Source: Antedon mediterranea (Eukaryota > Animalia > Echinodermata). Taken from it: 64,000 nucleotides of DNA. Shown in pieces: positions 2,730-53,300 of this stretch. Made by a program: the position numbers and the translations under genes. Every line of letters starts with the position of its first letter. Position 1 is the first letter of the stretch. The stretch lies in contig NC_092679.1 in NCBI RefSeq assembly GCF_964355755.1, forward strand, positions 22,985,432 through 23,049,431, read 5' to 3'. The notes under the pieces are model-generated. The model was given only the letters and a program-made list of their open reading frames with translations. It did not search any database and had not been told where the DNA came from.

Positions 2730-2845
2730 TCTACCAATACCGGACTCAATACCAATACCAAACACTACAGTACCAATACTAGACTCTACAAATACCGGAC
2801 TCTACAAATACCAGACTCTACCATTACCGGACTCTACCAATGCTC
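2730..2845. repeat. Degenerate ~17-bp minisatellite (AATACCRGACTCTAC-like)
   Basis: About 5-6 visible tandem units. Confidence 0.65.
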
Positions 2846-23523: not shown

Positions 23524-25086
23524 TCAAAATTCAAAGTAATGCGTATATGGTCCATTAGTTACAGTAGAAAATACTTGCCGATTTCCATAAGTCCCATTTC
23601 TAACCACACAACTAGCTTCGGTATATTTTGTACTCTTCTCCATTAACTCATTACACATTTGTACAAATTCTGTATAAAGTTCACGTCCAATGCCTTTTTC
23701 TATGTTACAATGATATTGCATCATTTTACCTTTCACCTTTCCCCCTAAAGTTGCTTGTGGGATTATGAGAACACTTCCCGGCAAATCGAGAATAGAGACA
23801 TTTTTTTCTTTCGTTTCACTTAGCTTTACATTCATCACCATTAATGCTAAAAGAAAATAAATACAAACTATATATAAATACAACTTGGTTGTCCTGCCAT
23901 TAAATAGCAATTTTTTGTTTTACAATGCTCGTCTTGACTACATGCAAGCAAAAAGATTTGTCTATGCTTGCTCATATATTTCTAAGGTTGCACTTGCGTT
24001 TTACTCTCGCATGCGGCCGGCCGCATCATGAAAATGAAAAGCTACCGTAGAACCTTGGACACCTATTCAGGGGAACACTTTTCCGTGGAACAAGAGGAAA
24101 CGTAGGTTTTTACTAGGGTAGGTCATCCACTATTCAGAGGGCACTTCATTTGGTACCGAAGATGTCATATAGATGTTCTACTGTTATATTATACTAATTA
24201 TACTACACCTCTTCAGCACCAGGTTTTCTACACCAAATACATATTGCATTATTGGTTTAAATTTTTGCAATGTTTTTTATGTATTTTTGTTAAAAACTTA
24301 CCCATCTTTTTGACTGTTTCACTAGTTGCTCCTTTTAAAAAGCAAACATAGACGACACATCCTTCACCAATCTGTTGAAAAAATTGTATCATAGAATTAA
24401 TTCAAGTTAAGAGTTGCTTGCACCAAAAAAAGTAATTAAAATCAATTGTGTTGATATGTTAGATCTACGGTTGAGCACTAGGGTGCTTTTTGCCTCCTTG
24501 ACAGATAAAATGTATATGAACTTAGCCCATAAAAAATAGATAAAAAGAAAAAGCAGAGGAAGCAACAAAGAGATGTACATGTTCGAGTATTTAATTTGAC
24601 CAATAACAAGCAACAACATCTAAAAACTGTGATGTTTATGGTCAAATCATATGTGTTCTGTACTATATGCTTGCTTTGCATCTTCGCACCAGATCATCCT
24701 GCCATCTTAATGGTGGTGACCACAGAGGTTGCGCATGCATAGAGTTTTCCAAGTGGAGAATTTTAGTCCAGACCTATTAACAATACACTGCAATACGTTA
24801 AAAAAAAAGACTAATTTGGCGCTAGTTCCGTTTCGCACCTGTCGTTTATTTCGACTCAAAATTGGTTAAGTAACTTTATCGCGAGTACCACACCTTAGAA
24901 ACGCCCTAAATTTTGGTAAACAATTATTTAATTGGACTGGTATTCATTTTGTGCTATACTAACTTCAACCCATTCCGCATCATTTTCATCGGTTGGTGGT
25001 TTTATTTGTAGTCTTGCTGATAAACATCTTTGTATTATAATTCTGGAATTTGGCGTTAAATTACTGCTATCACTACTGGATGTCAT
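23524..25086 (-). CDS. DTD2: D-aminoacyl-tRNA deacylase 2 / Animalia-specific tRNA deacylase (ATD), 3 exons, 171 aa
   Basis: Exons 24964-25086 ([20 protein letters not shown]), 24302-24371 (VYVCFLKGA) and 23524-23846 with ATD signatures PQATL and TNGPYTH and the GTYGNRQ motif. Splice phases consistent. Confidence 0.95.
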
Positions 25087-28300: not shown

Positions 28301-31300
28301 TAATTGTGCAACCACTGCAGCTATTCATATTTTGCACAGCATCACACTTCATTCATTCAAGTCAGAACTTATAAACCGTTAAAGAGTAAAGAAAATTTAT
28401 TTACTGCAGTATCTTCAGTAGAATAGTTTTGACATGGTCTTGAAAAGGTTACAAAACTGCTTTTCATGATATTTTGGTATTGTGATGGTTAATTGGGCAG
28501 CTTTTGTAGATATATTAAAAATTAATTAAAAACATGTTAATAATCCATCAATTTAAATATAATTTTTCAAATATTGAAGGCTATAGGGCAAGTTTTTGGA
28601 ACATACAGCAATTAATGCAGACAGTTTGAATTCTTTATTTTCTTAGGATCGAGACAAACAGCCTTTAGATTTTATGTTCAGTAAAGCTGCTATGATTGCT
28701 ATACTAAGTGCAGCCCAGTAAGTGCAACAACTTCTTCATTCTTTTATTACTTGTTGGAAAATTTTTTTAAATAAATAAATATACATAATACCATAATATG
28801 CCTATTGATTTAATATCGATTTATGGATTGAAGATTTGAAACGCTTTTAATATAGCATGGATAAACGCCCTCATACAAGCGGATGTATAGAGAGATTATT
28901 ATTATATTAATTATGATAATATTTTTTACAATAAATCTTGAATGGAAAATATTCAATAAGAATCTATTGTATTTGTACATTTACTTCTAAAAAAATTATT
29001 TGACCAACATTTTATTTAAAAAAATGTTTTAATCTTACAGGATGGCAAGTGCAGAGCCAGTTAACGAACAAAATTACATTTTCCTGAAAAAGATTTGTCG
29101 ATGTGTGACAGGCATGGGGTTTCAGATGACTTCTTTATGGGTAAACAATCTTCATTGAAATTTAAAATGGAATAAATTAAATAACTTTGCTGTTTACATT
29201 TGTAAATATCATTTCATTAATTTGTTTCCATTGGAATAGGAGTGTGTCTAAGGACGGACCAACTGTAGTATTTTCCTTCTTAAAATATGAAATTATGTTT
29301 AATAAACAGTCAAATAATACAAAGTTAACATACTCTATGTATACTGTAACTTCAATATACTTGAATAACTTTGGTTCATGTTACAATTATTCTACTGTAG
29401 TTACTGCAGTAACTGAATTTTCTGTAATAATGCATTGAATGTAAAGGTTTATGGGACAGTCATTGCAATAAACAGTGTGTATTAAAACTTTCTAAATAAT
29501 TTCATCAGGTTATGAAGTAAAGATAATGTAGTTACTGCATTAACTGAAGTAGAATAATTTTTGACTCTAAATATTTTAACAAAAAGCCATCATATTTTTA
29601 ATAATTAAATAATACTTTTATTATTATTATATCAATATTTATAATATATTTTTTGAATTTGAATAATACTTTTAATGAGTGCTAGCTTGTTAAGTCTTGC
29701 AATTCAATTACAGGTTGCTTACTATGAGATCTTGTTTTAATTTGGACTCAGTTGCTGCTTTTATAATAGGTACAAAAAAATATGAATACTTATAAACTCA
29801 GAGTTTTTGGGAAATAAACAACACACAATATATAATGAAATATTCTAGGATGTGAGCAGGGATTATTGTCTGGTTGTTAACATTCATGCAGTAGTTTTCC
29901 AGATAAAAAGAAATGTACAAAATATACAATATTAAAAATTATTTTTGTGTTAAAGCCTGAATATCACTTTGACGCAATGCAATGGGGTATTGTGCACTGC
30001 AAGTAATTTTGCCAATTACAAAAAGTGATGGATCATCTGAATTGGTGCTTGTGATTGGTCAACTCAATTGCATTGCGCCTACGTCATGTTGCATCAAACT
30101 TGCCAAGTAGGACTTCTCTCATGTACTAAATTATAATTTTGGTTTATTTGCAAAACCTCTGAGCTTTATAAGTGATCAGATAATCATTTTTTCAGTGATA
30201 TTAAATTTTTTTTTTGCGATTCTAATTTGACTAGGAGACGAGTGAAGCTGAAGGGGAGCCCAAAAAACCCGAAAACTTCACGGAGTATCTGAGAGCTCTG
30301 ATGGCATTCACTAGCCACGCTAGTGTACATCTGAGTCAGATGACTCTGGCCACGTGGTCTTTGTTCTTCCGTACTCCGATCATTGCGGAGGATCCAGGTC
30401 TAGTTGAGGTCCTGCCAATTTTTCTGAAGGTCGTTACTGTTCAGGCTCAGAAGGTAGGCAAAAGTCTGCGTCTTGAGCCCCTACAGAGCCCTAAAATTCA
30501 CCTTAGGGGTAGGGGTTATCTTATATGGGGTCTTAAAGGATGCTAGTAAGCCTATCACCCATCATGTTTTTATTTAGTAAATATTCATTTAATTGAGGAG
30601 TTACAGACAGTGTAATAAGTTGCGAGTGTGTATTTGCCAAAAAAAAGTGAAAGTAACCATCCCCTAATAAATAATTAAGACATTATGGATGGATAGTGAA
30701 AGTAGGATAGCATATTTGGAGTGGCTTTATGTTTATTATAATTAATTTACAAAATGTATATATTCATGTATAATTGATGTATTTGTTAATACAAGGTGGG
30801 AGACCCATCATTGTTGCCATCTCCTAAAGCAGAATACTTCCAAATGGATTTTGATTCAGAGGATGAGTTCATTTCATTTTTTGCAAGTAAGTACTGTATT
30901 ACAATAGGTCTTGCCAAAACTAAACTTCAAACTTTTGATTTTGATTGGTTGTTATGCATCCACACCACACAAAAGGTGTACTTGTTTAGGGCTAGTTTAT
31001 CAAAGTATAATGCAATTAATGAGGACCTAACCAGCTCTATTTTAAAACATTTTCTTAGCTCAGCCCCAACCATGGTAAGACATGGTCATGGGTGCTTATA
31101 CATTTTGTTTCTATTTTTCCACATTTACAATTTTTGCCCCAGCCTACACCTGACCTACTCAACATTTGTATAGTAAACCTGTGTCAGTCCTGTAGAGTGT
31201 TGTTCATATGCATAATACTAATGCTCAAAATACTTATCTCCATAAGTGAAAAAGTTAGTTTTAATTGATCAAATCATTATTTTATTGTGTTTACTTCAGC

Positions 31301-34300
31301 ATATCGTTCACTGTTCTTGGAGTTGGTTAGGTATGTTAATGGTCTGCAGCCACTGCTTACGTTCCAAGTTGCGGAGGCATGGCTTAAGCAGACACTGGCT
31401 GAACCACTCAGATATGAACCAGGTAGGTCAAACTGAACACATTCTTGAACGTTTACATCATGATTTGAATCACATTCCAAGGATTTTGGTTAAATACTAG
31501 GTTAAATCCTAAAATGTTTGTATATACTGTACTGTAAATTTATCTACATTAATGTTCTCTTTAAAACTTGTTTTCCCAAGTCCTACAATTAACACTGTAA
31601 CAGCCACACCCTCTATTAAATAGGACACAATTGGATCAACACATAATATAGCAACTATACTTTAAACATTTCCTTTAAGCTCTGTCTACACTATCAAACT
31701 AGTTTGACAAAAAAAGTGTGATGTGCCCAAATATGGTAGTGATAAGACATTTTGTTGTCACAAAGTTTATATAGCGTAGACAGAGCTTAAGATGGACATA
31801 CAGACGTAGAATCCCTCTTTTGGAACACCTGTACTCGGGGGGACATTGGATCCCTCTCGAAATATAATACAGCGACTATATCATTATTTTGTTAAATATC
31901 TACACTTTAGGGAAAACTGTCATTACTAACAACAGTCCATCGTTGTTACAATGGGATGCGTTAACAACGTTCATGGAGAGTGCTGTTCCACGTACTCTAA
32001 GAGGCGTGAATCCTCCGATTCAAGAGGGCGAAGAGCTACTGAAACAAGTTATTATTTATCAGACTACAGTAAGTGGAAAGTTTATTAGATTTAAAAAACT
32101 TTTTCTACTGTGAAGAGCCTTGAATCTGTGTCAATTTTGTGGATATAGCTTGCAGGTGCCTTAAACACTCAGCCATGACAATTTGGTACCATTCAAAATA
32201 ATTGAACTTAAGCTCTGTCTACACCATCAAACTTTTTGTGACCAAAAAAATGTGATGTGAACACGATGATGTCATATCACTACCATATTTGGGCATATAA
32301 CACTTGTTTTGTTTATCAAACTAGTTTGATAGTGTAGACAGAGCTTAACAATTTCTATTCAAATGCTCACATCACACTTTTTTTGTTAAACTAGTTTGAT
32401 AGTGTAGACAGAGCTTAACAATTTCTATTCAAATGCTCATATACACTCATTTTAATTCTTCTTATAGGATCCAATGATAGCATCGTGTGTCCTAAGCTGT
32501 GTGTCTACTCTGTTCCCAACCATAAGATATTCTCCACATTTTCTTGGACCTATTCTTGACAAGGTAAGTTGGAGAACTTGATTCAAGTTTTTAAAGACAC
32601 TTTCCATGCAATTTTTGTGTTTTGTAAAAAGGATACACATATATATATTACTTTAAAAACACTAAACCAGGTCATTCCTTTGTACGTTTTATGGTTAATT
32701 ATATGATAGATAGAGAAAAACAATGGACTACCTACGTAGTTTATGTCGAATGCCCTCTTGTCGACGGGGCTTAGGCCTAGTCTTTTTATGCTTAGTTTTG
32801 TAGAGTATGATTTGACATAACAATGTTACATTTTTCTTACAGTTATTTGCAGGAGTAACTTTCTCTGTACCCGGCCAGTCTAAGGTATGTTTGTGAAAAA
32901 CCTAGTTTTATTTAATCAAAAAATCATGTGACAAACCTAGGTCTTGATAAATCATATAACCTTTGACATATCTGGTTGAATGATTTTTAAGGAAACTGAA
33001 TATTAAAAAAAAGCCTTCAAAACAAACAAATTTACCAAAACAAAATGAACTGTGTGATAAACAGGTTATGGTTTTACTAACCTTTCTGTTAATAATATAC
33101 AATTTCACCTTTGACCTATCTATATATTTAATAATAATTTTGATATGCTGCATATTTTTCTCTCAGAAGACTAGAACACGTTCAGTCCAGAATGTACGGA
33201 GGCATGCTTGTTCTGCGTTGATAAAGATGTGTCGCGATAATCCTGAGCTCGTCATGGTAAGATGAATCAGGTTTAACTTACGAGTATGCTGTTTACAGGA
33301 TGAACTCTGACCCTTGGCACTAAAAGAACCATTTGCAGTACATACTATTAATGACTTCTTACACCTAGTTATTAGGAATCGAACACTATGGATGTATGGA
33401 AGGCAAAAAGTGACCAACTTTACTTTATAAACCAATATGAATAAACTAAAAGAAAAAATGAAAAAATACATTACACAGTTCAAAGCCTCTTGTGCAGAAA
33501 TTTAAGAACTATGCATTATAATATGTTTTGTGTGATTTTTTAAACTTTAGCCTGAATTTAACAAGATATATACTGCCACGAAAAGGTTGAGTGCTGACCC
33601 GAACCAGTTGACCCAACTTGAGAAAGTCGCCCTCTATGAGGCTTTGATACTTCTTAGCAACCAGTTCAACGATTACAGAAAGCAGAGAGATTTCCTCGCA
33701 ACCATCTTAGAACCAGTTGCTACTGTATGGAATTCTCAAGAAGTTACATTGTAAGGACAATTACATTTGTTGTATTTGCTTAAGAACTTTCGTAGTCAGC
33801 ATATAGATTCGTTGACTACTTTTTGTATTCGAATAGTAAATTTTAAATGGATTGTGCTCAGCAGAAAATCATTCAAATAGAAAACACATAATACCATATT
33901 AGATATCATCTTCTAAAACCACATGCATTTAATTTGATGGTTATTATTATTTTTTAGGGGAATTTCAACTCCAGAAAATTTCGTTGAATTTGTAGGCCTC
34001 ACTAAATATGACGAACAGGACCCAAAGGGAGTGAACAGGGCCAACATCATTGGGTCTGTGCAGACAATTGTTGCAGTAACTAAACGATGCACCTGGCCTG
34101 AAAATGAAGAGGTACTGTATATTGTAATTTAAAGCAATACATTAACACAAGAAAATGATGATATTGTTATGTTTAAATAAAGTTTGCAGAACACCACATT
34201 ATTTATGAATTTTTGAGTTTCTCAATCAATATACTGCGATTGTCGAGTGGAGTGCATACCCTTGTTATATGCATAAGTGGTATTTAGACTTACAGAACCT

Positions 34301-37300
34301 ATTTTTACTTGTTGTTTTTTTTTTTTTTCAAATATTTTGTTTTTTTTGTAGGAGGCCATGGCGGGAGGTTTTATCCAGGGTACGATGGAGAATGGGAAAC
34401 CAATCTATAGAAGCGCTTGTGCTCCTCTCATTGCACAACTGCTAAACAATGTTTTAATTTTAACAAGGTAAATTTTAAATTTATTATTAGCTTTCTGGTT
34501 TTCGTGGTTCAAATTCCACCATGTCAGAATTTTTTCTCATGACAAAATCAACTAATAATTGCTTCCAAATATTTGATTTCACTCGTGGAGAGCAAACTGT
34601 GCCTAGGTTGTCTTAGGCTATTGTTTTGCAGACAAACAATGATCTTACAGGCAATGAAGCATAATGGGAGGTTAAATGAATAGCTGCTACACAGCAACAA
34701 GACGGTGCCTTACAGAATGTTGTGTTATTAATGTGCATTTGTATATATTTAGGACAATGAATGCAATATGGTCAAGGGATGTACAGTCCAAGGTAGACCC
34801 AGCCTTTAAACAAGCCTATGAGATGATGGAATGTGACCGGCTAGCACTACTTGGTAATCTATTTATAGACTTTATTTTTCAGCATTTTGTTTTTGCGTTT
34901 CTACCATGATCGTAATTATTTATATAGTCGATTATTAATGGTTCTCATCTTGTTGAAATCACTTCCCATTGAGGAGTCCACCCTCTAGCCAATCTTATAA
35001 ACTCTTTGGCTAACACCAAGCTACAGCTACAGTTGAATTCTATTGGTTTATTTCTACTTTCAGGTTCATTTTCAATGATAAGCTCTTGTGATTCACAAAC
35101 ACTAAAAACATTACCTGATAAGCTACAGAGCTTTCTAACTATGCTTCATGACCTCTGGTAAGTAAAGGCTAAAGTGTCTAGGAACTAAAGACTATATTTA
35201 TAATAGAGTACACTGAGTTGGGAAATGTTTCAAGGTCAAGGTTTAAATCTTTTACTTAGTATTTGTCATTGAACAATGCATTTTATGAGCCTTCGATCTT
35301 CCCCCTTCAGGAAAAAAGTGGTTACTTGGGGCATTATCAGTTTTTTCCTCATATTTTATTTTTATTTTATTTTATTCATACTCATTCAACAGCGGGAAAC
35401 CCGCCCCTATCAAACCATAATCTTACTATTTTATGCAAATGATGTACTAAATAAAATAATAGTATGTTTTGTTTTTATTATTTTCTAGTTATCACACATT
35501 AGCTGGCGCCAGTACTTGCCTTGGTTATGAATTTTATGCAACACCAAACCTTGCAAAACAACTCCTGTCAACTACATTCACAAGCCTTCATCTATTACCT
35601 AACCACAAGCTTAGGCCAATCATTCATATCCTTTGTATAGATTTTCACAATTTAACACTACCCAACTTCCCACAGACTGGCCGCGCACAGGGGACTGCGC
35701 TTGGCTTAGAACTCCTAAGGGGCCCTCCAATGCTAGGCAATTGGACTGAGGCTGCTCATGCTCTCAGGTCCCTTTAAGCTATGGGGCCAGTGAATGCTCG
35801 TAGCCATTTTATCACTGATTATTGTTGTTATATTTTTAAAAATTAATCTACCACAAAAATATTATATTTTCTTAACAATTATTTACGTGTTTTTCTGAAA
35901 TTGTTTGTCCTTTATTGCCCGCTGGAATTCTATTTCTCTCTCTTGATTCCGATCTTTAGAGGGTTTTGCGAATATATGCTGATACGACTTGGTCAGTGTT
36001 GGGAAGAAGTGCATGAGAAGACTGCTACTAAGTTTGTATTTTAAAAATTTGTTTTAATATTATAGTTTACTATCTGTTTTGAACAATACTATAAAATAAA
36101 TAAACTAATACTAAAAATCAAATGGAGGTCATTGAAATTTTAGGAATAAAAGTTTCATTATTTTAGAAATGAACATTTGGTTAATTATTATTTAGCCAAA
36201 TGCAATGTAAATGTATATATAGTGTTAGGAAATATTAATGCTTGCTCTTGTCTAGTTGAAAATTAGTTAAAATCACTGGTTTATATCATTGAATTAAACT
36301 CACTATTCAAGATAGTTACTAAAAACTAAAGTTAATTTCATATTAATTATTTCAGTTCTGATAGTGATGAACCAGAGAAGGAGGTTTTAGAGGATCAAGT
36401 TGTGAAACATGTAACCAAAGATTATCTTGACTTCTTGCGTACGTTTGACACAATATAATTATTTAATTTTCTTTAAAACACTTTTTCTGAATTAAATGGT
36501 TGATATGAACCAAACCGATTCAAGTTGGTGTCTATTTTACTGTCCTGTTTTTGTACCATTGCACAAACATTGGTTTGGAACCAATGGTGCTTGTGCAATG
36601 GTACAAACCAAAATCTCATTTGTTCTTTAGCTCATTATCATGCACAAAAAGATAAACTTTTGTTCTTATTAAATAAATTCTGTCAACAAAATGTATTTAT
36701 ACCATTTGTCTATTATTTGTTTCAACAAAAAAGTAATAATTTTCCAGTTAACTTTTGTTCTTGTTTTGTATATACAGGAAATGTGTTTCGAATACGAGAT
36801 CAAGCTTTAAAGAAAAATAGTGGTAATGATGAGATGGAAACAGAAGCGAAACCAGAAAAGTTAGAACCTGGTGAAAAGACTTCAGAATTTTTTTCACTTA
36901 GTGACCTAGGAAAAGCCATAGTTAAAACTGAGGTATTTCAGATTGTAAAATATTAATGTAGTTATAATTGTACTTAAGCTAATCTTGAAATTCAGATTAC
37001 GCCCACTGCAGACCCATAAATGATCCCCTACTCTTTTTACCACTACAGCCTACCCCTAATTACGGGACACTCCTATTAAGAGGGTGCTTTTCCATAAAAT
37101 GCAGACCCATAAATGATCCCTACTCTTTTTACCACTACAGCCTACCCCTAATTACGGGACACTCCTATTATCGGGGTGCTTTTCCATAAAATGAACTAGA
37201 AGAAATGTATGTTCTACCCAGTGGCGTAACATAGAGACCTATGGCCCCTGGTTTAGGAACCCTAACTGGCCCTCCAACGCTGGAGCTATTGGCCGTTTAA

Positions 37301-39170
37301 ATGACTGTTTTTTCCTCCGCTCATATGCTCCGGGGCCCCTGGGTTTAGCCAGTGATCACTCATAGCTGTTATGCCACTGGTTTTACCACTACAGTCAATC
37401 CTATTTAGGATACACCCCTACTTTATTTGGTCCTGAAAATGTCCCCTTAATTTTTTACTGTATTATTTTCACAATTCTGAATATTTCTTGTATTAACAGG
37501 ACCTGATGCAGAACATTACATTGTTTGTATATTCCGCTTTGTCATTTGATGATTCTAATGTCTACTTCAAGGCTATAGGCGTCGCCCACCTTCTGCTGCA
37601 AGAGGTAAGATATTAAAATACTGGGAAAGACATATCAATAAAAAATACTGATGACGCATCTAAAAAGATAATCCGGTTTCGGTATTATCACTAAGCTGTC
37701 ACTACTGGTGCAATCTGGATAGTTGACTCAAACCGCAAACTAACTATTGTTATTCGCCATGCAAACCTTTAAACAATCTTTAAATGATTTATTGAATAAT
37801 TTTTTACTTTACACAGTTACCGAATTGTAACCTATTACCTGAGGCTGTGAACCACTTGTTTGTTGCTGTATTACGCCCTTTGCAAGTGCACGGACACCAC
37901 GATTCTCACGTTTCAACCATTCTAAACAACGCAATCTACCATTATGACGTATTTGTAAGCCTTTTATTTTATATTAGCATATTCATTTTATAATAGCAAT
38001 AATATACAAATAATATTGAATGCTTATAAGTGAATCCTAGTTCTGGTGGTGGAAGTCTTTTTGGATAAGGACTACAAACCATAGATCCATTGTACAGTGA
38101 TAACCTGTCTACTTTAAAGAACCCAGGTCATCATTCAAGACAAGTAAAGAGTTACCCCGGTGAACTGGTTAACAAAATAGCCCCTGTATCAGGGGGATTA
38201 TCACCTACTGTATCAGATATTAAGACAGTGAATATTTTGCTTTTTTGTAATCATTGATCACATGTGCCTAAAGAATAAAATAATATGTGGATATACAGAA
38301 CAGAGTATGCTCAGATACCCTATAGTTAAACTCTCAGCGCTTAGTTTTCTTTGATGACATGTATATATCACCACTTTGTGCAATTATTTCTGTATTTGCA
38401 GAGGCCAAAATACCCAAAGATTATTGATGTGCTCTTGCACGTGCCAGGCTGCGATGCTGAAGCGGTGCAGGCCTACGACAGCAAGGTGCTCACCACATGG
38501 TCTATAGGCAAACCAATACCAGATAAAAAGAAAAAAGATCACTTTAAGAAACTTGTTCAACCTCTTATTAGGGTAAGTCTATTTTATTGTAATGGGTATA
38601 CGATGCTTGAAACAGACGTTTAAGACCTAAAGCTTTGCCTACACTATCAAACTTTCATGTGACAAAAAAATGTGATGTGCCCATTTATGGACATGATGAT
38701 GTCATATCACTACAATATTTGGGAATATCACACAATTTTGTATTTTGTAAAACTAGTTTGATAGTGTAGACAGAGCTTAAAAATATTCCTAGCCCTACTA
38801 AATTCCACTCAAATTAAGCGGAATTAATTGTTTTCACTGCTCCTAACTTTATATTTTGTTCTTTGTTTAACATGTATGTGTTCTAAATTGTTAAACATTA
38901 GGTACATGCAAAGTGGCTCCTAGTCATAGTAGTCTTGGTAAAAGTTTTTTCTCAAAATCTGAAAGTGTAATTTAACAGGTATTTTTACTATTTTGAAGAA
39001 AAAATCATTTAAATATGCAATTATGATTTTAGGTAGTTGTCAGTAATAAATACAAAAAGGAGGTCATGTTTGGAAAGATGCCTCGTCTCTACCGCCCTCC
39101 TAAGCCTAAAGCACCCACAGTTGACGAAACCAGTCAAGAGTATGGATTGATACAGCTATTTAAGGACTGA
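25323..39170 (+). CDS. XPO5: Exportin-5, ~29 exons
   Basis: MCALHLDSTVQKLIHSVNITMDPSASHQQRTEAYHFCEEFKESSPLCVECG..IRHFGLQILEHCAKFRW, EMIKKEWPQRW, TRSVQNVRRHACSALIKMCRDNPE, LRPIIRVFLKLFVLYCP, KKKKDHFKKLVQ; stop TGA at 39168-39170. Includes a 30-nt (27646-27675) and a ~42-nt exon. Confidence 0.95.
28275..28439. mobile_element. MITE-like element with ~24-bp imperfect TIRs
   Basis: GACCATGACAAAATAATTCTACTG ... CAGTAGAATAGTTTTGACATGGTC. Related ACTGCAGTA-rich fragments near 20000-20150 and 29390-29565. Confidence 0.5.
31679..31786. mobile_element. MITE family A (GCTCTGTCTACACT TIR), TTAA-flanked
   Basis: ttaa-GCTCTGTCTACACTATCAAACT...AGCGTAGACAGAGC-ttaa. Other copies at 32212-32344, ~38630-38776 and a fragment at ~2110-2210. 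Confidence 0.8.
32212..32418. mobile_element. MITE family A copy plus adjacent partial duplication of its right end
   Basis: TIR-bounded copy at 32212-32344; the right end plus flank is repeated up to ~32440. Confidence 0.75.
35626..35886 (+). other. U12-type (minor spliceosome) AT-AC intron in XPO5
   Basis: 5' ATATCCTTT, branch-point-like TTTTCTTAAC at 35867-35876, 3' TTTAC. Removal joins C|GT to give the conserved LRPIIR-VFLKLFVLYCP. Confidence 0.9.
37007..37192. repeat. Tandem duplication, 2 x ~93 bp
   Basis: TGCAGACCCATAAATGATCCC...CTTTTCCATAAAA occurs twice. Confidence 0.85.
37219..37379. mobile_element. hAT-type MITE
   Basis: TIRs CAGTGGCGTAAC / GTTATGCCACTG; 8-bp TSD GTTCTACC / GTTTTACC (7/8 match). 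Confidence 0.75.
38030..38290 (+). mobile_element. Degraded, 5'-truncated copy of the Deu-like SINE at 47471
   Basis: CCTAGTTCTGGTGGTGGAA..GGATAAGGACTACAAACC..TTTAAAGAACCCAG..CCCGGTGAACTGG..ATAGCCCCTGTATCAGGGG. Confidence 0.7.
38630..38776. mobile_element. MITE family A copy
   Basis: GCTTTGCCTACACTATCAAACT...AGTTTGATAGTGTAGACAGAGC-ttaa. Confidence 0.75.
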
Positions 39171-39888
39171 GTGACCTCTACATTTTTAGGCAGATGTTTT
39201 AATTGATCTTTACATTGGCGTAACCATAATAAGTTGGTCAAGAAACAGGGGATGTATAGCCACAAAATAAAGCGACCTTTGACATGATTGGCCATGCTTA
39301 GGAAAATATTTCATTGAACTTTATATTGGCGTAAAAACATAGTAAAGTCAAGGATTAGGTGACATATACAAGCGACCTTTGACATGATTGATCATGTTTA
39401 GGCAAATATTTCGCTGAGCTTTACACTGGTGAACTATGTTCATTAAAATAAACAGCCACTCAAATCATGATTATAGGTTCGATTCATTTGTATAATCATG
39501 ACCTTTGACATGACCTGAAAATAAAAGAGATATCATCGTAACCATAACAGGTACTAAAGTCTGAAGTAAAATAAACAAAAAAGTTTCGTGCAAAATATCT
39601 TTAATCAATTCAACAAGAATTTAGGAACAAGAACAATAAGTTGGATATTTTTAAATTATTTTTGTTTGTGTATAAACTTTAAAACTGTTTTAAACCAGAA
39701 ATGTAATGTTTTGTTTATAACATGTTAAAATATAACAATATGTGAATCGTCTGCTAAATTCTAACTTGTCTCATCAAAGACTTCCTTATGGAAATAAAAC
39801 ACTAGCTACTTGGTTTCATAAATGTTGTATTCATTTTGTCGGTATAATTCTTTGTAATCAAATGATGCTATCAGACTATACATACAAC

Positions 39889-42160
39889 CTATGTTATTAA
39901 GTGTTTACATACATTTTGTTTTATATGTTCATTGCACAAAACAGACGTCGAATACGGGAAACACTGGGTTAGTGCCTTCGTCAGGTCTGGATCTTGATTG
40001 CTTCCAATTTTAAAATCCAAACTCTGTATATCTTCTTGATCTTCCATTAATATTCCGCTGAGATGGGAAAACAGAGTGTGGAAAGTTGCATAGTCAAAAT
40101 CCCAATGCAAAAACATAGGTCCCAATACTAAACTATGTTCACCAGTTACAGAAGTGTAATTCTTATACACAGTAGCTGTTACGTAACTTGGCCCAATATC
40201 AAATGGCCTATCGACCACTACAATGTCAAATCCATAATCTGTTTTTACGCTAAATTTCTGTTTAAAATTAACCAACTGTGTGTCACTGTGTAGTATTACA
40301 ATCGGATGTTTCCTTTTTCTCTGAATGATCCCTTGCACTAATTCTTCATTTTCCAGCATTATCAAAACCTTCATTGGAACTACTTTATTCTTCCGCACCA
40401 TGTTATATTCTTTTATAATATTGTAAACTTGTGGGAAATTTCTTGGTGTAGCTATTTCATTCTGTTCTGCCATACCTTGGTAACTTTGTATTGGTGTTTG
40501 AATGTCATTCCGTTCTGCCATACTTTGGTAACTTCGTTTTGGTGTTTCAATTTCAATGTGTTCTGCCATACATTGATAACTTCGGTTTGGTGTTTTAATT
40601 TCATTCTGTTCCACTACATCTTGGTAACTGCGTGTTGGTGTATCAATTTCATTTTGTTCCACTACATCTTGATAACTTCGTGTTGGTGTTTCAATTTCAT
40701 TTTGTTCCACTACATCTTGATAACTTCGTGTTGGTGTTTCAATTTTATTCTGTTCTGCCAGACCTTGATAACTTCGTGTTGGTGTTTCAATTTCATTTTG
40801 TTCCACTACATCTTGATAACTTCGTGTTGGTGTTTCAATTTTATTCTGTTCTGCCAGACCTTGATAACTTCGTGTTGTTGTTTCAATTTCATTTTGTTCT
40901 GCCATATCTTGGTAACTTCGTGTTGGTGTTTCAATTTCATTGTGTTCCACTACATCTTGATAACTTCGTTTTAGTGTATCAATTTCATTGTGTTCCACTA
41001 CATCTTGATAACTTCGTTTTAGTGTATCAATTTCATTGTGTTCCACTACATCTTGATAACTTCGTTTTAGTGTATCAATTTCATTGTGTTCCACTACATC
41101 TTGATAACTTCGTTTTGGTGCTTTACTTACTACGATTTGACCGTTTTGTTCGGTTTGTACGTATGATATACCTATATCTTGATCAATGTGTTCCAGTGTT
41201 TCAATTTCTACCGTTTCTAAACTTTTTGGTTGTTTTGTTTCTACGTTTTTCGAATTACCATGAGCAATGCGGTTATTACTATAAAATCCGCGATATTCTA
41301 TGAGGGCTACATCTGTTAGTTTGTTGTTTTCGTACAACGTCGTTACACGTTTTCTATAGTTCGTGTCAGGGGCTTTGAGATGTGTGTAGTATCTTCTCAT
41401 TTTGATAACTTTCTCTGGTTGCGGTACTAAAGGATGCCACAGTGACACTTTCTTGATTCTGCTTTCAATACAATAAAGATTGTCCTTCAAATAAACAGAA
41501 CTTAGTTTGCCATTTGAGTTCACAATGAAATAATTTGTAACTGCTTTTTCCCTTTTAGAGTCCCAAACTCCACAGTCATCTGGGAAAAATTGTCGTTGAC
41601 AGAAGTGTTTCTTTCCTGCATTGCATGTGTTATCTACAAGGTAAACACTGTTCTTGGGGCCACATGGGATGTGAAGATGAATGAACAAGTCTTTTGATGT
41701 TAAATGTTTATACGTTTCTGTAACGGGCAAAAATGATCCTGTCGTGTGTATCTTTGATAAACAAGACATAGATGTCATCACTTCCGACTGTTCTCCCGAT
41801 AGCGACACCATCTGCAAATAAAAATATCAAATTTCTGTATGGTGGAAAAACAAAAAAGTTAATTGTGTGCTAATAATGTTGCCACAATAGTTAATGGTAA
41901 AAGAATGGTCCATACTTTTCAAGTAACAGTTATAGATGGAAAACTACCCCCTGGAAATTTACCACCCAAACAACTACTCCCCTTGGACAACTAGCCAATG
42001 AAATATTTCCAATAATCCAGGAGGTGGTAAATACTATAGAAAAGTATGCAAGTTTCGTGTATAATACCTCAGGAAGCGATGTTTGGTGACTTTCAAGAGA
42101 CTGCCACGCCATTTGGGAATCATGTTTTGGATCATTCATAGTTGCTCTGCTGACTGCCAT
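39889..42160 (-). CDS. Mutator-like (MULE) transposase-derived protein, ~671 aa, 2 coding exons, with 14x16-aa repeat; predicted catalytically inactive
   Basis: Exon 42068-42160 (MAVSRAT..LPE|gt) splices in phase 0 to ag|41811-39889. N-terminal DDCGVW..RRYY..KRVT..LIEY.G..HGNSK block. C-terminal VVDRPFDIG..VTATVYKN..LGPMFLH..FSHL..GSNQD..FP..LCNEHIKQN resembles a MULE DDE core up to CxxH, then stops. Possible 5'-UTR donor at ~42869. Confidence 0.7.
40448..41119 (-). repeat. In-frame coding minisatellite, 14 x 48 bp
   Basis: Unit encodes (P/L)(T/K)RSYQDVVE(Q/H)NEI(E/D)T; no frameshift or stop on the minus strand. Confidence 0.92.
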
Positions 42161-44334
42161 TACCTCTTCGTCCTCTACGAAAATTAACAAATTCTCTACA
42201 GCAATATTATTTAGCCAAAGTCCACATCACTGAGATGTCAATCTATTAAATTAACAAATAACAGTAAGGTTACTAAAAATAATGAAATAAACTGTCCCAC
42301 TCTTGCTCATATGATTTAATCATAAAAGAGGTATTGTCTGAGTTGTAGACTAGGTAAACCTCCTATCCCCAGGAGAAACATTCAATTTGACACCTGACCT
42401 ACCAATAGACCTTAATTTAAATTTTCTCCTGTATTGCTAATAGCTGCATTGCATAGTAATAACAACATTAACAACAAGATTAAAATGATGTAAAACACTT
42501 CTGTAGGTTAGAGACAGTTTAATATTCGTAATAAAGAAAAACATTTTGGCACACATGGCGTGTCATACCTGTACTTGAATTGAAAATATTTTGCTGACCT
42601 CTTTAGAAATGAAATTTATTTATAATTCAGATGAGTTAAAATAACCCGTTTTTAATTATGAAATGGATGACCCGGGCATTTGGCAGGAGTGTTTCATACC
42701 AATATGGGTTCTTATACTGATTGTGTTATACTAAGTTAGTCCCTAAAACTATTATTATTCCCTAATTAAACTAGAATCATAATGGAAGACGTAGGCTACG
42801 TGGTCTAAAGCTAAAGAATATCATTTTACAATATAAAAGAATAAATATTATATACGGTACAGTACTTACGTACATAAAAAGTCCGTTTTCTTCAGTATCA
42901 CGAAAATGAACAGAGTGAAGGCAACATGGATAATTCGAAACCAATTAAGCAAAATTATGCCAATAATGAAGACAATGAAACAGTGTTCAGACAATGTACT
43001 GCGATACAATGAACACAATGAACGATTTCCGATGTCGACACAATGGTCACGTTTGTATGGAGCGCCAAGTGTGCCATCGTGGTGTGTTTTAATAGTTATT
43101 TAATGACGACTCAGGTTTTTTCATTTAATAATTTTACAATAATGTAATCATTTTAAAATAAAAAAGACAAAAGATTATTTATAATGAATGACGTCGGTGA
43201 TGAAAATGAAAATTCCATAAAGCCATTGTATTTATGGTCTAATGGTTAACGGTTTGCATATCAAGCAGAAGGTTACGGATTCGAATCTCACCGGTTTGGG
43301 CGGCTTTTTCTCATTCTCAGATAATTATTTCCTATTTATCGCTATTAACGCCAATAACCTTTGTGGATAATTGTGGACGCTACCCTACAAAGAAAGTACC
43401 GTACTACTACTACTACTTTACAACATTTTATTTTCCGATTATAGGCACACGGTAAGTACAGACTTAAATATATATACGAATTGAAATTTATATTTATGAA
43501 AAAAGAGTGATTACTATTTACATTTAGTCATGATAGTGTTCCACTATTTTATTCTGCCTACTAGTTAGTTTTCTGTCACCATTGTGTTGTATTCACTTCA
43601 GTAAGCTCATTTGCATTTTGCCAGCCATGTGAATCTTTACTGTAAGAATAAATACTGGCTATAGCTGTGAAAACACTCCTTAGAAGAGACCTGTTTACCT
43701 ATATTCAAGAAGAACATACTGATAAATTTGGTAAGCGTGTTTTCTTCCTTTATAATTAATGTTGCTGTTATAAGCTTTACTAGAGTGGTGTATTTTGGGT
43801 AGGCTAATTTTAATTTTAAACATGCTGTGTAGGCCTACTTTACTATGCGTTCTCCATAGAATTTCGTCAAATTGGTTGAGTGTAATTCTAGTTGGCCCGG
43901 GCGCGCCAACCATAGAAACTTGACTATCATCGTTATAAACTTCTTTCGTTGATTATTCTGTTTACAAATTAATGGACCATTACAAAAAAAGACTAAGTTA
44001 TAGTTAATAGTATTTTATTCAATAGGGCCTATTCCCTATTCATAAAGGTGCTTAGACGTGTCTATATTTTTAATGTTTCAGGAATTATACGCCTATTAAC
44101 TCGTTTTATGCTGTCATTAACACGAGTATTTCATTTTTTTTAGATAAAATAAATACAGCCTTCAGTATTGTTAAATGTACTGTGCTTGCTGAGTTTTTAC
44201 TCTTATAAAAAAAAACAATTATAAAAGTGCATGTCGAAGGTCAAATGACCAACAGGTTCTGAGTATAGTGTCATTTCTATGAAAACCAGAATTTAAATGA
44301 AGTGCGATTGAGTTGGTAGCATTCCAATGATGAG

Positions 44335-47300
44335 CTACATGTTCATTGTTGATTTTTCATCAATAGTACTATACATGTTCTCAATATATGTCTGTTCTTG
44401 CATTGTTTTTTTATTGTGTTGACATTTCTGTTTCTTCTTGTACACCTGCAAAATTAAATGAAGAGACAGTCAGATAATGTTTTTCTTTTAAATGTAAAAT
44501 CGTAGAGAAAGGCGAACAATTGCTAAAATTGCTATCTTCTGGTATTTTTTTAAATTTTGTATTTATTAATTTGATTTGTATTATGCTTATTAATAAGTGT
44601 TATATAAGTTATATTAGGTCACAGTATTAGGACTTTGACGTCGTTCGGAGTATAGTAGGCCTATTGATTGCATCCATTTTATGCTAAGCAAACATTTTCT
44701 TCTGTTATTAGTAATTCAACGTATTTCCTTATTAAAGGCTTCTAGTAGACCTGCCACTTGATGAAGATGTTACCCGAATATTTTTTTTAATAAATATACC
44801 GCCCTCTATCCGATGGTTATTTATAGCGCCCTCTATTGTTTTCATGAATTTTACAAGTTGGGCCTATTAGGGAAATCCCCATATTATAGACGTCTCGCAG
44901 TAATTCATCACCAAAATTAAGAACTGGTCATTTTGCAATTTAGTGCCAACTTACCAGAACTAATAGAAAGATTATTAAAGCTATTAAGACGCCGATGACA
45001 GCGCATACAACTCCGACGGTTCCTGACTGGTTATTCGTTGATATGTTTTGTTGGTCCTGATACAGTGTTCTGAACGTAATGGAATCCCGGTAGGCTACCA
45101 ACTGTGAACCTTCGAATTCGAACTGGAAATTCCCTTCATTTACCTATAAACAAAACGTTAAATTTAAACATATTTTTTTTTTATGTAATATTTTATCCTC
45201 GCTACTCATCGTAATTATTTTTCTTCTGTTATTTTTTGAGAAGAAATGAAAACACATTTTTGAATATGAACATTTATTGGTTCATTACTACGTTTCAAAT
45301 GCGTTTCAATTCTTGAACGCCGCAGAAATATCTAGTTAAAGCTTGGTTCACACTAGGACGACGTAACGCAAGGACGTAAGCCGCAACGCAAGAGAATTAC
45401 ATTAAGCTTGGTTCACACTAGGACGACGTAACGCAAGGACGTAAGCCGCAACGCAAGCGAATTACATTAAGCTTGGTTCTCACTGTGATGCAACGCAAGG
45501 ACGTAGATGCAACGCAAACGAGTTGACCAATGACAAGCTACAGTCAATCAATCGCTTGTGATTGGTCAAATCCTTTACGTACGTCGTTGTACTACGTCTC
45601 TAGTGGGAACCAAGCACCTACCTGTTCTTCCATAAATACGACAAGATCTGTTACTGATAGAGTTTCAGATTCATCTTCAATTAATTGGAAATCCACTTTG
45701 ATGCTTCCTCGAGTTATCTATTGTCCAAGATAAAATGTTGCAAAATGTAATATAACCGTATTTTATCTAACCTGAACACTTCTTACGTATGTGCATGTTC
45801 TATTTAGATTCAGTTTTGTAAACTATGCACCAACGAGTAACTAATGGTGACAAAATATTTAAAAGAAAAACACCTACATTTCTGGAAATTACTCTTAATG
45901 TTAAAAACGAAACATGGTCAATATTAAGCAAACATTTTCCGTCGAATGTTTCTCATCTAGTTATTTCCGTTGTTTTGTTATCTTTTTATGATTTAACGCT
46001 TTTGTGACAATACGGTAATTGTTTACACCTACCATGATATTCTTTACATTTCTAGCATCAACCCCATACTCAGAATTCATAAATAAAGCAAATTCTCTGA
46101 GAATAAGAAAATATTTATTCGTTCGTTCATTCATTCATATAATAGTGGTAATAATTTTGTAATAAGTAATTCAATAATTCAACTACTGTTTTAACTTTGT
46201 AACATTTTGTATACAATTCTATTTTTGTTGTTGACTTTTTACCTACAATAAGTTCAAACTCCTTATGACTTAGGAATGTTTGTTTCTTTATATATACCAG
46301 GATATTTTTTTTAATGTAAAAGAAAACCTATTCCGAAAGAAATCTGAAAACAAATACCACACTCACCTTTGAAACAACTGTGTTTTGTTGACAACAATTG
46401 AGTAATCATTTTCAAATTTTAAAGCCACGTCAATTCCCCTAGATTAATCAAAGAAGTTTAAAGATTAGGTAGGTGATTTGTTAGTCCATCGCTGCTTTCA
46501 ATCATTTTTTTTACGGATTCTAAAATACTGAGTTGATGAGTTGTGCATGAATAAAAAAGATTCATATTTTATGCCCTTAATTAGACACTGGAGAAAATAA
46601 TACAGGTCTAAGCGTTCATGGGAATGATAATCTCAACCGAATTCAGAATTTCGTTCAGTTTTCTGTCATCGGCTCAAATTGACTTAGCCCAGAGATGGAT
46701 TAATGTCTCGACCTTCCGATGTCCAAATATGGCCAAATAGTAAAATAATTGTCTACCTGTCACATACACATAAGTATCAGATAATGATACTTACTTTACC
46801 CGCATGTTTTCTGAAAAGTAAAAAGAATAAATTTATTGTAAATGGTGATGTAACACGTATTTATTATTAATAACAGAAAACAAAAGTAATTATAATCATT
46901 GTACTGTATATTTTATATGATATCGAAATATATCGGTTGTTGTTACTCACGGCATTGTGGTTTTCTATCAATCGTTCCAACATCACCTTCGATTCTAATT
47001 CCTAATTCATCAACACACCAACATTCGTTTAACAGATAATCGCACTGAACTGCCGAGTATCTGCCGTCTTCGTCGCAGTCTGGAACGGCAACGTCTTCAA
47101 CTCCAGACATTTTTCGATATTCTCCTCGTTGTCTTTCAAACATACATCGACTTGGAACTGCGTATAAAGAAAGTTAGAATATTTTTTGCCATCTTGTAAG
47201 GAAAGAAGCATAACAGAGGGAGATTTTGGCAGGGAGAATTAATGGGAAAAGACAGAGGTAGGCTGCGAATAACAACATATAAGAATGGACTGGACATGAA

Positions 47301-50300
47301 TGAGTTATCAGAAATGCGTGAGGATGGATCAACAGAGGAAAGAATGCAAATTCATGAAAGTCAATCTGCTTCTAGCGGAGGGCATCAGCAGGTAACAAGT
47401 ACTGTAATGGGACTAAAGTTGCTAAATTACAAGACCTCTTCCATTTGCAATCCATTTGTATATATAATCTGAGTCAAATGGCCGAGCGGTTAAGGCAGGG
47501 GCGCCGTTTACCGTACCTAAAAAGCCAACAACATCGGCAAGGGTTCGAGGCCGACTCGCTCCTAGTTCTCGTGGTGGAACAAGTCTTCTCGGATAAGGAC
47601 TATAAACCGTAGGTTCAGTGTACACAGTTATAACCTGTGTGCACTTTAAAGAACCCAGTTCATTATTCGAAAAGAGTAGGGGGTTAGCCCGGTGAACTGG
47701 TTCACAAAATAGCCCCTGTATCAGGGGGGATTACCACCTATCTGATAGGACAGTGATTAATTCACTATTGGTAATCCTTGGCCACATTACCTAAAGACAT
47801 AAAATAAAAATTTAAAAAAAATTAAAAAATAATCATAGTTTGCACATTGTGTAAAAGTAAAGAAAACTTGCAAAGGTTTTCACCAAACCACAACATCGAG
47901 GCGTCGGAATTCGCTCCCTAATACCGCTTTCACACGTCACCAAAAGCAAGACTCCGGAGACACTCCGGAGTTGACGCCCCGGTATTTTGATGTGAAAGAG
48001 CATTGGTGAAACTAGTTACCTTGATTGCAATCAACATCTTCTCCATCATTATTGTTAACAAACTTCACTTTACACTGGCCGCAGATGTCGATAACACAAT
48101 GTGCGTATTGGTTCCAACGACAGTACTCCATAGCACATAAGTCTTGGGTGCATATTTGAGCTGGTCGGTCTGGTGGGCATACTATCGACACCTCGTCGAC
48201 TGCTGCTTCTTCTGGTTCTGTGAGAGTAATATTATTTTGTTTAAAACCAGTGAATTGTAGCCAGATGCACTTTTAGTTCTATTGTTGTTCTTCTTCAATA
48301 AGTATCGGATTTCTATATAAGAACTTCTAAATAATAATTGCGTGCTGTAACTATAACAAGATGCACATCCTAAAGTGCACTATATAAACATAGCATAGTG
48401 CGTACACATTACTTTTCTGCGCGTACTTGACTGCGGCAATTATTTGTAGATTGTAGATTTCTAGATACTGTGATCCTGTAGTTTCACCGTCATTATCCAG
48501 TCACATTGTGTTTCGTACAAACCTTAGTGATGTTTGACAGCACTAATGTTGACATTACACTATTATTATGCAAATTAACTTATAAATCGATTGTGATTTA
48601 GGCCTGTATAAGTCTGTATATTCATGTCTTGTAGTGTGGCCAACCTTTAATACTTATTACATAGTGTAAACTAAAGAGCAACAATACTAACATGAATGAA
48701 AATATATGCATCTGAAGAAAATTGTTAAAAAAGAACAATCATTTAATCTCAAGAAATAATACTTTATTGCGTTATTGTAGAATGAATAATATTAATAAAA
48801 TGAAATATATAGGAGGCAATACAGTATTAACTGTTAAAAGAATACTCGCGAAAATTAAAATGTCAGCTTGGTAAAATCAGTCAAGCTGTTAATAATAATA
48901 TTAATAGATGAGTAAGAGTAGTTGTTGTCCAATAGCATAAACGAGCAGTTTATCAACAAGTGTCATGGAGCATGCGTGCTCCTACCTCGTTTACCAACCC
49001 TATGACTACCGGTTTCACCTTGGCAAACGATGTTCTCAGATGGCTTCGTACACGTTCTCCATATTGGCCTGCACCTATCACATGGATCCATCACACAGAA
49101 GACGTCGTCTTCATCAGAGTGGCAAACCTCACCAGAACAACGGTCCACTGAGCAAACGTCCGGGGTACTTCCGTCATCGCATAACGTGTCTGTTATTACT
49201 AAGCAAAATTGAAAATTATGATATTAATCAAACTAAAGGAGGAAAAGTTTGTATTACTTGACTTCTTTTCGTATCGTCTACTGGCCATGTACTCTATTTA
49301 GAACAAGATATTGTAGGCCCAAAAATTCATCTAAATTTTTAGTAATGTAACATGGTTGTAAATAATCTTGGTTACACGATGTTATTTTTCTCGTGTAAAA
49401 TATATATATACGATAATCTTTAGTTATAGTTATTTTAGTAAATAGTGGATCATTTAGGGTTACTAGAGTATTCGTGTTATTAGAAAGAAAAAAACATAAT
49501 TTGTCCTACTTGTTTCAGCATTGATTTCACCATCTTGGTAACATCTAAGCTCAGAAGTATCCATTCCAATCACCAACGTATTCACCAACATGCTTCCGTC
49601 TTCATCAACACACCAACACCAATCAACATCTGTACGACATTGCTTCCACTCAAATTGTCCGTCAGTAGTACAAAGAGGAACATGCGGAAGCAGTAATGGT
49701 ATGTGGCTATCTGAAAGTTTAAACAGATTGCTTTATGCTCTATCTTTGCATGTTTACATGTGTAAATGTGTATCTCTATTGGGATCCATCTTACGATTCC
49801 TACAGCATGGTCAATTTTTCGTCAATTCCTTTTGAATTTACATGAGATATAGTATAAAGAACTTCAAGACAGTATCACATATTTACTCACTGTTCTCTTT
49901 TGTTGCTCTTCTCCGTCTTCCATCGGATCCTGGAACCCCTGGTGTTCCCGGTTGCCCTGGTTTGCCTGGTTGCCCAGGACTCCCAGGAATGCCATCACTT
50001 CCTGGTTGTCTCGTTCCATAAGGTCTCTCGGGTCCAGTAGGCCCTGGTGGTACATAACTACCATCACCACCACCACCACCACCACCACCACCACCACCAC
50101 CATGTCCGCCATTCCCGCCGTTACCACCATGACCACCATTTCCGCCGTTTCCGCCATTTCCGCCGTTGCCACCACTACCGCCATTTCCACCGTTGCCACC
50201 ATTACCGCCACGTCCGCCGTCTTCATTACCTTCTGTAGGAGTAATATCCTCATCTACAGTTCATAAATAATTTTTAAATAAATTCTTTTATCTATGTTTT

Positions 50301-53300
50301 TCATGTAATTATGAACATGAAAATCATTCATATACAATTCAATTCAATTTAGGCCTGCTTTCAATAAAATACTGCTTTCTCTAATTTTCATTCCTGTAGC
50401 TGAGTTCGCTTTGATTTACCTTTTTTTGCTTATATTTATTTATTAATTTTTCTAATTTTATGATGATTTTTTCCCATTTTTAGATTACCTGAATCTGTTT
50501 CTATGGGCTGATCAAATCCTAGCTCTTTTAAAAGATCTCGGAGATCATATGTAGGCCCTTCGTGATCTGTTGTGGTCAGTGTTGGCAGATTTACTTGTCC
50601 GTCTGTTGAAACCAGTGACAGTAGGGCTTGAAACTCTTGCACACTTAAGCCCTGTCCACCAGGACCACCAATTACGTTTATAAAGTCATAATTCGGATCT
50701 ACAGTGAACGCTCGTTTGCGTGCGAAAGACAGGAGTGCTTTGAACATGGTTATGACGTCATCGTTTGGTTTTATGTTTTCTTGTTTTTCTTCCACCGTTT
50801 TACAAATACTGGCTAGTCGATGATTTAGTTGGCTTTTTGAAGAAATGGCAAAACTTGGATGTAAAGAGTTCAGACTGGTTTGTCTCTGGACCTCACATAT
50901 TGATAAACCTTAAAAGAAAATGGTACACCAGAGTTAGACGTTTCTATTGTATTTAGACATTTTAGAATTATTGAAAAAGCAATACCGTTATAGAATTGTT
51001 TTAAATTAAACAAAATTAGTAGAAAGACAACATAAACTTTTAGTTAGGTTATCTGCATACTTTGCAGGTGCGGCTACAGCGAACGAATTCCAGTAAACAT
51101 GTTGCTCTTTTCGAATAACGGCAGCAAGTTATGTTTGTGTATTATTGTAAAATCGTATATTCAACTGGATATGATTATGTTACCGTAGCGAGTAAGGTTT
51201 GATATATGAAACACGCTTACTGGGTTCAGCTAGGTGCTTTCTCACTAAAAATCACCACCAGACATGATAAGTAACTTACCTTTTGAACAATCTACTTGTC
51301 TATTGAGTCGATCATAGAATGCGTACGAACAACTTCCACATGAGTCCATTCTACAGACGGCAGTGTGGTCTCCCAGACAGACTTTGGAATCGCAAAGATC
51401 CCGGGGACAATCGAGATACGGAGTATTGTCGCGACACACTGCAATAGCAGCAAAGTGAATATTAGATGCAATAATATAAATATGATCATGAATGTTTCAT
51501 ACTAGGTTTTTCTCAAGTCATAAGAACATTTTGAACACTTAAGAAAGACATATGTGGTTAACAATTTTGAATATAAATCAACTACTCTTGTCTGTACTTT
51601 TATGGGATATGTATTACGCATTTGCCTATGTATTACCATCACGAACATTAAAACACAAGTAAGCCAACTCACCATTCCTTGTGTTCTCGTCATTATCATC
51701 TAAAAATATAAACAAAAAACCAATATGTTTTTCCCAGAAACGCCAAAAAAATATAATAACATAATATCCCTTCTGTTTAAGTGATTCTCTGTTTAGGTGA
51801 CCATCATCATTATTCCACACAAACTGTTTGATTTTGTCTACAGGACTGTCTCATGACATCTAAATTTAAAGACACTAAACAAATATCTTACCATTTCTGG
51901 ATGGTGGCAGGCCTCCATCTATAGAAAAAAGAAAAATTAAGTACATAATTATCCATATCCATATCCATAAAATATTATTTGATTTATGTCCACAACAGTA
52001 TTAATTAAAACATTTATAAAACAAACAGTCCTACTGTAATATCTTGAACAGTCTGGATTTCCCAGCACAATGCTGCCATGGATTTTCCTTCCTCTTCCGT
52101 CTACGCACCAGCACAGACCAGCTTCTCGCCAACATTGGGTTGTCAACCAGTCACCATTATGTGAACAACTAATATTTTAAAAAATATTACGTTAATTACT
52201 TAATACCAACTAGTAGTGAGATTTTATAGGGCGCCATAAGCATCAATTTAGTTTACGCCCATTTCAACTAACACACATACACTTTGCTGCTTATTGCACC
52301 TCATAAGTACTATGTTTCAACAACAATAAATGTTTTCTCTTTACCGAGGATAAAAAGACTGGAACAGACTGTACGGATACGGTATATATTGCCAAGACGT
52401 ACAAACAGTTTGTCCATCTGGAGTAAAGAAAATTGTGTAACATTAGTTTAATACGAACAAATAATGTGTCGGACGGCACACCCCGTAGTTAAAATAAAAT
52501 TTCAAAAGCTGTATAAAGGTCCTGGTTGTTTCAGTGACGATTAAAAAAAAGTGATTATTGGCCATAAACTTTATTTTTAATTGCGAGTACGTCCCAAGCT
52601 TACATCCTAAAGCATACCTTTCTGTGGCTGTACACATTGAGTTCCACATCCGTTGCTACAGCACTGTAAGCCAGGCCGACAGTCGGTATCATCTCTGCAT
52701 AACTGTACGCATGCGCCTATTATTCCAGAAGATGGTGGGCAGGTAAAACTTGGAACTAGAAAGTTTGATATGATTAATTTCAAATAAACAGAATGTTCAG
52801 ACCATTTTAGAAAAACAAATTACTAATAAGAAATCGGGTATTAATTTAATATGTGCATATAAATTACAACAATTTATTATAATAATAATAATAATAATAA
52901 ATAATATATTTATACAGGATAAAACAATCAGATAACAGTGTATCTGTTTTACATTGTGGTCCTGTCTTAATCAAAATATACAAAAGAGAAACTTAATTAA
53001 ATATAATACATGTCAGTTTTTTATGAAAAGAAATGAGATTTGTATCTAGCCTTAAAGGACGTAATTGTTGGTGCCGATTTAATATTAATTGGTAAATTGT
53101 TCCATATTTTTGCGCCTGCAACTTTAAAGGACGAATTCATTTTACTAAGGGTGTATTTAGGTATTGTTACATTCAAATTTTCTACTCCACGTGTTAAGTG
53201 GGTGTGAATATCGCGAATCAATTCAATTTCATTTACTAATCTAATTGGTGCAAGGCCGTAAACACATTTATACATTAGACATGCTAGGGAGAAATCTCGT

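Follow-up and report, generated by a model that had tools for sequence, protein, structure and literature searches.

Domestication of Mutator-like element (MULE) transposases is known from plants, fungi and nematodes (available text of PMC1702500 and PMC6446971), and the derived factors compared here were FHY3/FAR1 and MUSTANG of plants, Aft1(Rcs1)/Aft2 and Rbf1 of fungi, and the solo WRKY-GCM1 proteins of Caenorhabditis. Among animal MULEs, the Phantom subclass is defined by a FLYWCH finger (available part of PMC3169594). A survey of transposon-derived transcription factors in animals covers six families, and the words echinoderm and crinoid are absent from its main text (PMC10027918); OTU, PHD and crabs go unmentioned in the available part of PMC13359780. 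Here we describe a gene on the minus strand of a 64,000-nt stretch of the feather star Antedon mediterranea (contig NC_092679.1, positions 22,985,432 to 23,049,431; hereafter the window, to which all coordinates refer). It is a spliced, conserved gene derived from a Mutator-like transposase, of whose three catalytic residues two have been lost, and it is a new case of MULE transposase domestication by a known route. Neither this gene nor the OTU-bearing MULE subfamily to which it belongs is the subject of any paper that we found, although supplements, subscription papers or Repbase may hold one.

The closest systems are marine-invertebrate transposases of the (PHD)-OTU-MULE type, such as those of Littorina (XP_070207400.1), Pinctada (KAK3082787.1) and Haliotis (XP_046346407.1) and the proteins P0007 and P0174, which carry an N-terminal domain, a linker and a core in the same order at 30-40% identity. 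Compared with these, the feather-star gene lacks the OTU protease and the PHD finger, has Asn in place of the second catalytic Asp and has lost the tail with its Trp and Glu, while its linker is extended by 14 repeats (the linkers of intact relatives span 26-57 aa). It differs from FHY3/FAR1, MUSTANG, Aft1(Rcs1)/Aft2, Rbf1 and the Caenorhabditis proteins in stemming from a different donor subfamily and in being cut inside the catalytic domain. Like Phantom, its family consists of animal MULEs in which a (here predicted) N-terminal DNA-binding domain precedes the MULE core, but no FLYWCH domain is among the 25 families listed for our alignment of relatives (A1).

An earlier sequence-only reading had proposed an intact, spliced 1.9-kb open reading frame (ORF) with an in-phase upstream coding exon at 42068-42160, and both proposals hold. 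The stop-free frame (39889-41826) comprises 645 codons, and no other ORF that overlaps the locus comes near it in length. Joining 42160-42068 (31 codons, phase 0) to 41811-39889 gives a product of 671 aa, identical to the reading of the database protein P0002, which is labelled as an uncharacterized protein of Antedon mediterranea and has two RefSeq accessions (XP_071963531.1 / XP_071963532.1). Contigs of four public runs were aligned to 41125-43500; no run is on record as RNA, and runs X3 (organism A) and X9 (organism B) were taken as transcript-derived from their splicing. The 42068/41811 junction, for which the earlier reading had asked for spanning transcript reads, is spliced (GT..AG) in contigs of both runs, and one contig from each skips both 41812-42067 and 42243-42873, each GT..AG on the minus strand.

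The resulting model begins with a non-coding exon 1 (42874..42981; a minimum extent, as an organism B contig reaches 42999), bearing out the expected non-coding first exon, although its donor lies at 42873, i.e. 4 nt from the predicted position of about 42869. Intron 1 (42243..42873, 631 nt) is followed by exon 2 (42068..42242), which holds 5' untranslated region (UTR) and the first 31 codons from the ATG at 42160-42158, and is thus longer than had been supposed, beginning at 42242. Intron 2 (41812..42067, 256 nt, phase 0) precedes the coding part of exon 3 (39889..41811; 640 codons and a TAG). The sequence at 39562..39888 is likely the 3' UTR, being continuous with the ORF in an RNA-type contig (X3 record 3) and covered by overlapping pieces from X6 and X9; it may overlap the 3' UTR of the neighboring XPO5 gene. 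The spliced 5' UTR has two upstream ATGs opening frames of 9 and 6 codons, the latter in exon 2, and an in-frame ATG also starts exon 3, at 41811.

The C-terminal part of the protein is a truncated MULE/RNase H core (39892..40452), which matches its relatives at E 1e-26. The motifs named in the sequence-only reading are as claimed: the first Asp is retained in VDRPF (D565, 40212-40210), the second Asp position in GSNQD is occupied by N636 (39999-39997), and the CxxH motif is present as CNEH (C657/H660), with the stop codon 11 aa past the His. The insertion domain, the Trp that belongs downstream of CxxH and the catalytic Glu are missing with the tail, so that only D565 of the DDE triad is left. 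Pfam family PF10551 was matched in 36 of the 48 aligned members, while the protein itself has no Pfam MULE match, and descent from a MULE transposase is thereby indicated indirectly, through homology to PF10551 / PF00872. The core is of the RNase H type, as in the IS256 and hAT transposases. A Foldseek search with the model of the core returned four matches at E<=0.001, to glucokinases and a mitoribosomal protein, and these were rejected; Hermes and ISCth4 ranked lower by E and higher by TM score. The sole Pfam match on the ORF, Fibrinogen_BP (aa 236-453 of the ORF), is an artefact of the repeat array. With a hidden Markov model (HMM) of 52 tails, no match appeared near the stop, and when the three frames after it were tested by local score against the lost tail, the uncorrected p values were 0.87, 0.045 and 0.055, so rescue by read-through or frameshift was not accepted. 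Likewise, an HMM of 22 fronts found no OTU or PHD remnants within the window.

The sequence-only reading had named dN/dS as a test, and comparison with organism B yields a clear skew, the data comprising two close taxa and 29 differences, with the repeat array outside the comparison. An organism B contig spanning the ORF end (39560-40440) has 15 differences and no gap; none of the 13 that are listed falls at N636, C657, H660 or the stop. Over 180 codons of the core we counted eight synonymous and five non-synonymous differences (dN/dS 0.16, p 0.002 against neutrality), and counting both unlisted differences as non-synonymous still leaves 0.23 (p 0.006). At the end of the N-terminal domain there are six synonymous and two non-synonymous changes among the 8 of 26 differences listed, while exon 2 has the opposite trend, with two synonymous and six non-synonymous (0.73, i.e. 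weak constraint). The overall synonymous skew has p 6e-5. Since the lesions are common to organism B, the differences arose after inactivation, and because they postdate the breakage of the enzyme, the skew indicates purifying selection acting on the broken form. The organism B pieces of exon 3 have a single length change, of 3 nt and in frame, and 3' of the stop there are deletions of 3, 8 and 3 nt. Organism B also shares the introns, the upstream DNA to 43500 and the 3' flank, followed as far as 39560 and so not up to the coding exon of XPO5; a 36-nt match of 39891-39926 to other organism B contigs is probably a chance AT-rich match.

The N-terminal domain (about aa 55-219; 41248..41742) is basic, with 26 K+R against 15 D+E, and retains 29 of 34 family-conserved columns, a conservation equal to that in intact transposases. 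One Cys and one His, the only candidate zinc ligands among these columns, are both retained, and NAC domains are described as lacking a metal site (available text of PMC1702500). The model of the domain has an antiparallel beta-sheet of the WRKY, GCM, NAC and Aft2 type, and the fold search suggests membership of the wider WRKY-GCM1 superfamily; the fission-yeast remodeller subunit Ssr4 comes within 1 Z of GCM, and the next matches are sequence-specific DNA binders. We infer from these models that the domain binds DNA. It has no Pfam FAR1, FLYWCH, GCM or WRKY match, and Foldseek returned nothing at E<=0.001 for its model. The profile of alignment A1 matched only designed repeat proteins among PDB sequences, which were discarded, and the ESM Atlas features (GCM, FAR1, FLYWCH and ZSWIM3_N included) all score below 0.9 and are a lead only. 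The CG-1/CAMTA-like label given to this block in the sequence-only reading is not established: CG-1 (PF03859) has no Pfam match in the query domain at E<=1, and one of the 48 aligned members matches it faintly over the strand block first pointed out (CG-1 positions 81-114; E 0.076, 13.2 bits against a cut-off of 23.5). Among the structure matches listed for the domain there is no CG-1 structure. The other domains of CAMTA proteins are TIG, ankyrin and IQ, and Pfam matched none of CAMTA's other domains in the feather-star protein.

Between the two domains lies a tandem array absent from the earlier reading, i.e. 14 units (14.1 copies) of 48 bp at 40443..41120, encoding 16 aa each (aa 265-488), acidic, with ten TP motifs and making up about one third of the ORF. 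An HMM of the linker matches the last unit at E 0.0013 and others weakly, and three of four tested units score above shuffles (3, 2 and 0 of 300), the fourth less so (19/300). For these reasons the array was likely amplified from a piece of the ancestral transposase's own linker helix.

As to copy number, a single contig of the DNA run X1 covers the coding exon, at depth 28 against 24 in the neighboring contig, and nothing else in that run covers the exon at >=80% identity. This points to one copy at that identity, although depth is a weak measure of copy number. In X1, depths of 600-3300 are attained by short repeats upstream and within the introns; such high-copy elements lie at 43235-43325 (upstream) and at 42533-42578 and 41925-42004 (in introns 1 and 2), with depths of 600-41,000 overall. 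The upstream one looks tRNA-derived, but ARAGORN called no tRNA there. Inverted-repeat searches around the gene found short AT-rich matches only, the best between the 3' flank and 5.2 kb upstream being a 21-mer at 90% (39699-39719 / 45145-45165), in agreement with the earlier failure to see terminal inverted repeats (TIRs); MULEs without TIRs do exist (available text of PMC6446971).

Trees built with FastTree and fast IQ-TREE (with 47 and 35 rows, limited to relatives that have both domains) set the subfamily apart from the rest with supports of 0.98 and 95. Its inner branching is weak: P0002 and P0035 group with supports of 0.40 and 80.6, and the position of the intact pair P0007 and P0174 has 46.9. 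The trees thus fit a single shared domestication as well as several separate ones. P0035 has the nearest N-terminal domain (46-47%) and is dead at all five catalytic-site columns; used as a query, it found no close named relative (best 42%). P0007 and P0174 retain all five catalytic-site residues, and these nearest intact relatives are 34-40% identical. Derivatives in brachyuran crabs, namely Eriocheir LOC126982622/623/630, Scylla LOC135095266, Portunus LOC123515096 and Chionoecetes KAG0722056.1, form a clade that resembles the feather-star gene, as does P0035, in belonging to the same subfamily, in degenerate catalytic sites and in having no OTU or front where inspected; in Eriocheir P0107 this linker likewise contains repeats. 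Unlike the feather-star gene, the crab derivatives and P0035 keep the C-terminal tail. The records of Eriocheir P0107, P0099, P0154-P0156 and P0169 (LOC126982425/622/623/630) list the same contig size of 12,937,974 nt, as would be expected if these dead MULE-derived genes formed a tandem cluster. The database matches included no orthologue in any other echinoderm.

Taken together, the gene has very probably been domesticated in some form, and it probably serves the host as a DNA-binding protein that regulates transcription or chromatin. The earlier idea of a co-opted host protein thus stands for origin, lesions, splicing and selection, while its DNA-binding part is read from the predicted fold. 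In the proposed mechanism, the WRKY/GCM-type domain would bind DNA sites, which initially were probably the parent transposon's ends and scattered remnants of them, and the acidic, TP-rich array would provide either a flexible spacer or a surface for activation. The half RNase H core, incapable of cutting DNA, would persist under selection as a folding or protein-interaction module. The OTU protease and PHD finger of the parent have been lost, and translation starts in the short exon 2.

Of the other explanations, the one that survives best, though we consider it rather unlikely, is a domesticated transposon repressor that binds the ends of related MULEs or poisons their transposase and leaves host genes unregulated. 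Truncated P-element repressors act by similar poisoning or binding, and the anatomy suits such a role, with an intact DNA-binding domain, a retained and selected core and no catalytic helix. Intact subfamily members exist (P0007 and P0174), and transposases controlling their own expression are on record (available text of PMC1702500), but neither the database searches nor the 20 records looked up showed a transposase of this family under the name Antedon, X1 has no second cover of the exon at >=80% identity, and the intact relatives are distant. Improbable is a role as protein scaffold within a chromatin complex, with no sequence-specific binding to DNA, in the manner of Ssr4 of fission yeast: Ssr4 does tie with GCM in the fold search, but the matches that follow are sequence-specific binders, and the basic domain has kept residues conserved among transposases, which depend on binding their ends. 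Least probable, and largely refuted, is a decaying transcribed relic whose ORF is open by chance and without host function, since the lost catalytic residues, tail and OTU/PHD front, the repeat expansion, the occurrence in two close taxa only, the nearly neutral exon 2 and a frame past the stop faintly like the lost tail (p about 0.05, uncorrected) would also suit decay, but the lesions are common to organism B with later differences skewed towards synonymous, the organism B pieces of exon 3 change length only in frame while the sequence 3' of the stop does not, and intact transposases show no stronger conservation of the N-terminal domain.

The gene lies tail-to-tail with XPO5, as had been stated, their stops (that of XPO5 at 39168-39170) being 718 nt apart. 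The likely last coding exon of XPO5 (39033..39170, plus strand) has no Pfam match itself and is presumed to be such from its position and likeness, while upstream exons match Xpo1 and Exportin-5. The supposed housekeeping cluster is found on the 3' side only, where domain searches identified exons of TADA2 (11156-16701, minus), D-Tyr-tRNA deacylase (23527-23919, minus) and XPO5 (26552-39170, plus). The 5' side is occupied by a multi-exon thyroglobulin/WAP-repeat gene (44943-62784, minus). It encodes no fewer than four thyroglobulin type-1 domains and two WAP domains; some of its exons are Cys-rich, one near 49886-50260 is Gly-rich, and that at 44943-45143 likely encodes a transmembrane segment. 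Within this gene lies an apparently intact LINE (53021-57128, minus), presumably CR1/L2-like by its architecture, with both ORFs stop-free: ORF1 (432 aa) has a PHD, an SGNH-type esterase and a CCHC knuckle, and ORF2 (1000 aa) an endonuclease and a reverse transcriptase. Several frames of 100-136 aa without Pfam match occur at 58365-59969 (plus), also within the span of the thyroglobulin gene. A dispersed repeat flanks the transposase-derived gene in direct orientation as two copies 9.5 kb apart (38044-38283 / 47572-47807, 70-86% identity), one of them in an XPO5 intron.

Lastly, the feather-star gene is a well-supported and probably recent instance of a transposase becoming a host gene in the crinoids, for which such data are scarce, and it is open to study at an early stage, with fixed lesions, measurable selection and known intact relatives. 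More tentatively, it may belong to a class of animal transcription factors that has been overlooked, as the first of them to be recognised; the class would stem from one OTU-bearing Mutator subfamily tamed repeatedly and independently (in feather stars, crabs and at least one more lineage), each time with loss of the OTU protease and of catalytic residues, and with a linker repeat array grown more than once. It is part of the same speculative proposal that the donor's WRKY/GCM-fold DNA-binding domain escapes every Pfam model. A predicted DNA-binding domain common in invertebrate transposases is missed by Pfam, and therefore domain-based surveys (such as PMC10027918) would not count such genes. 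The parallels in crabs allow a test of whether one donor subfamily has been domesticated repeatedly.
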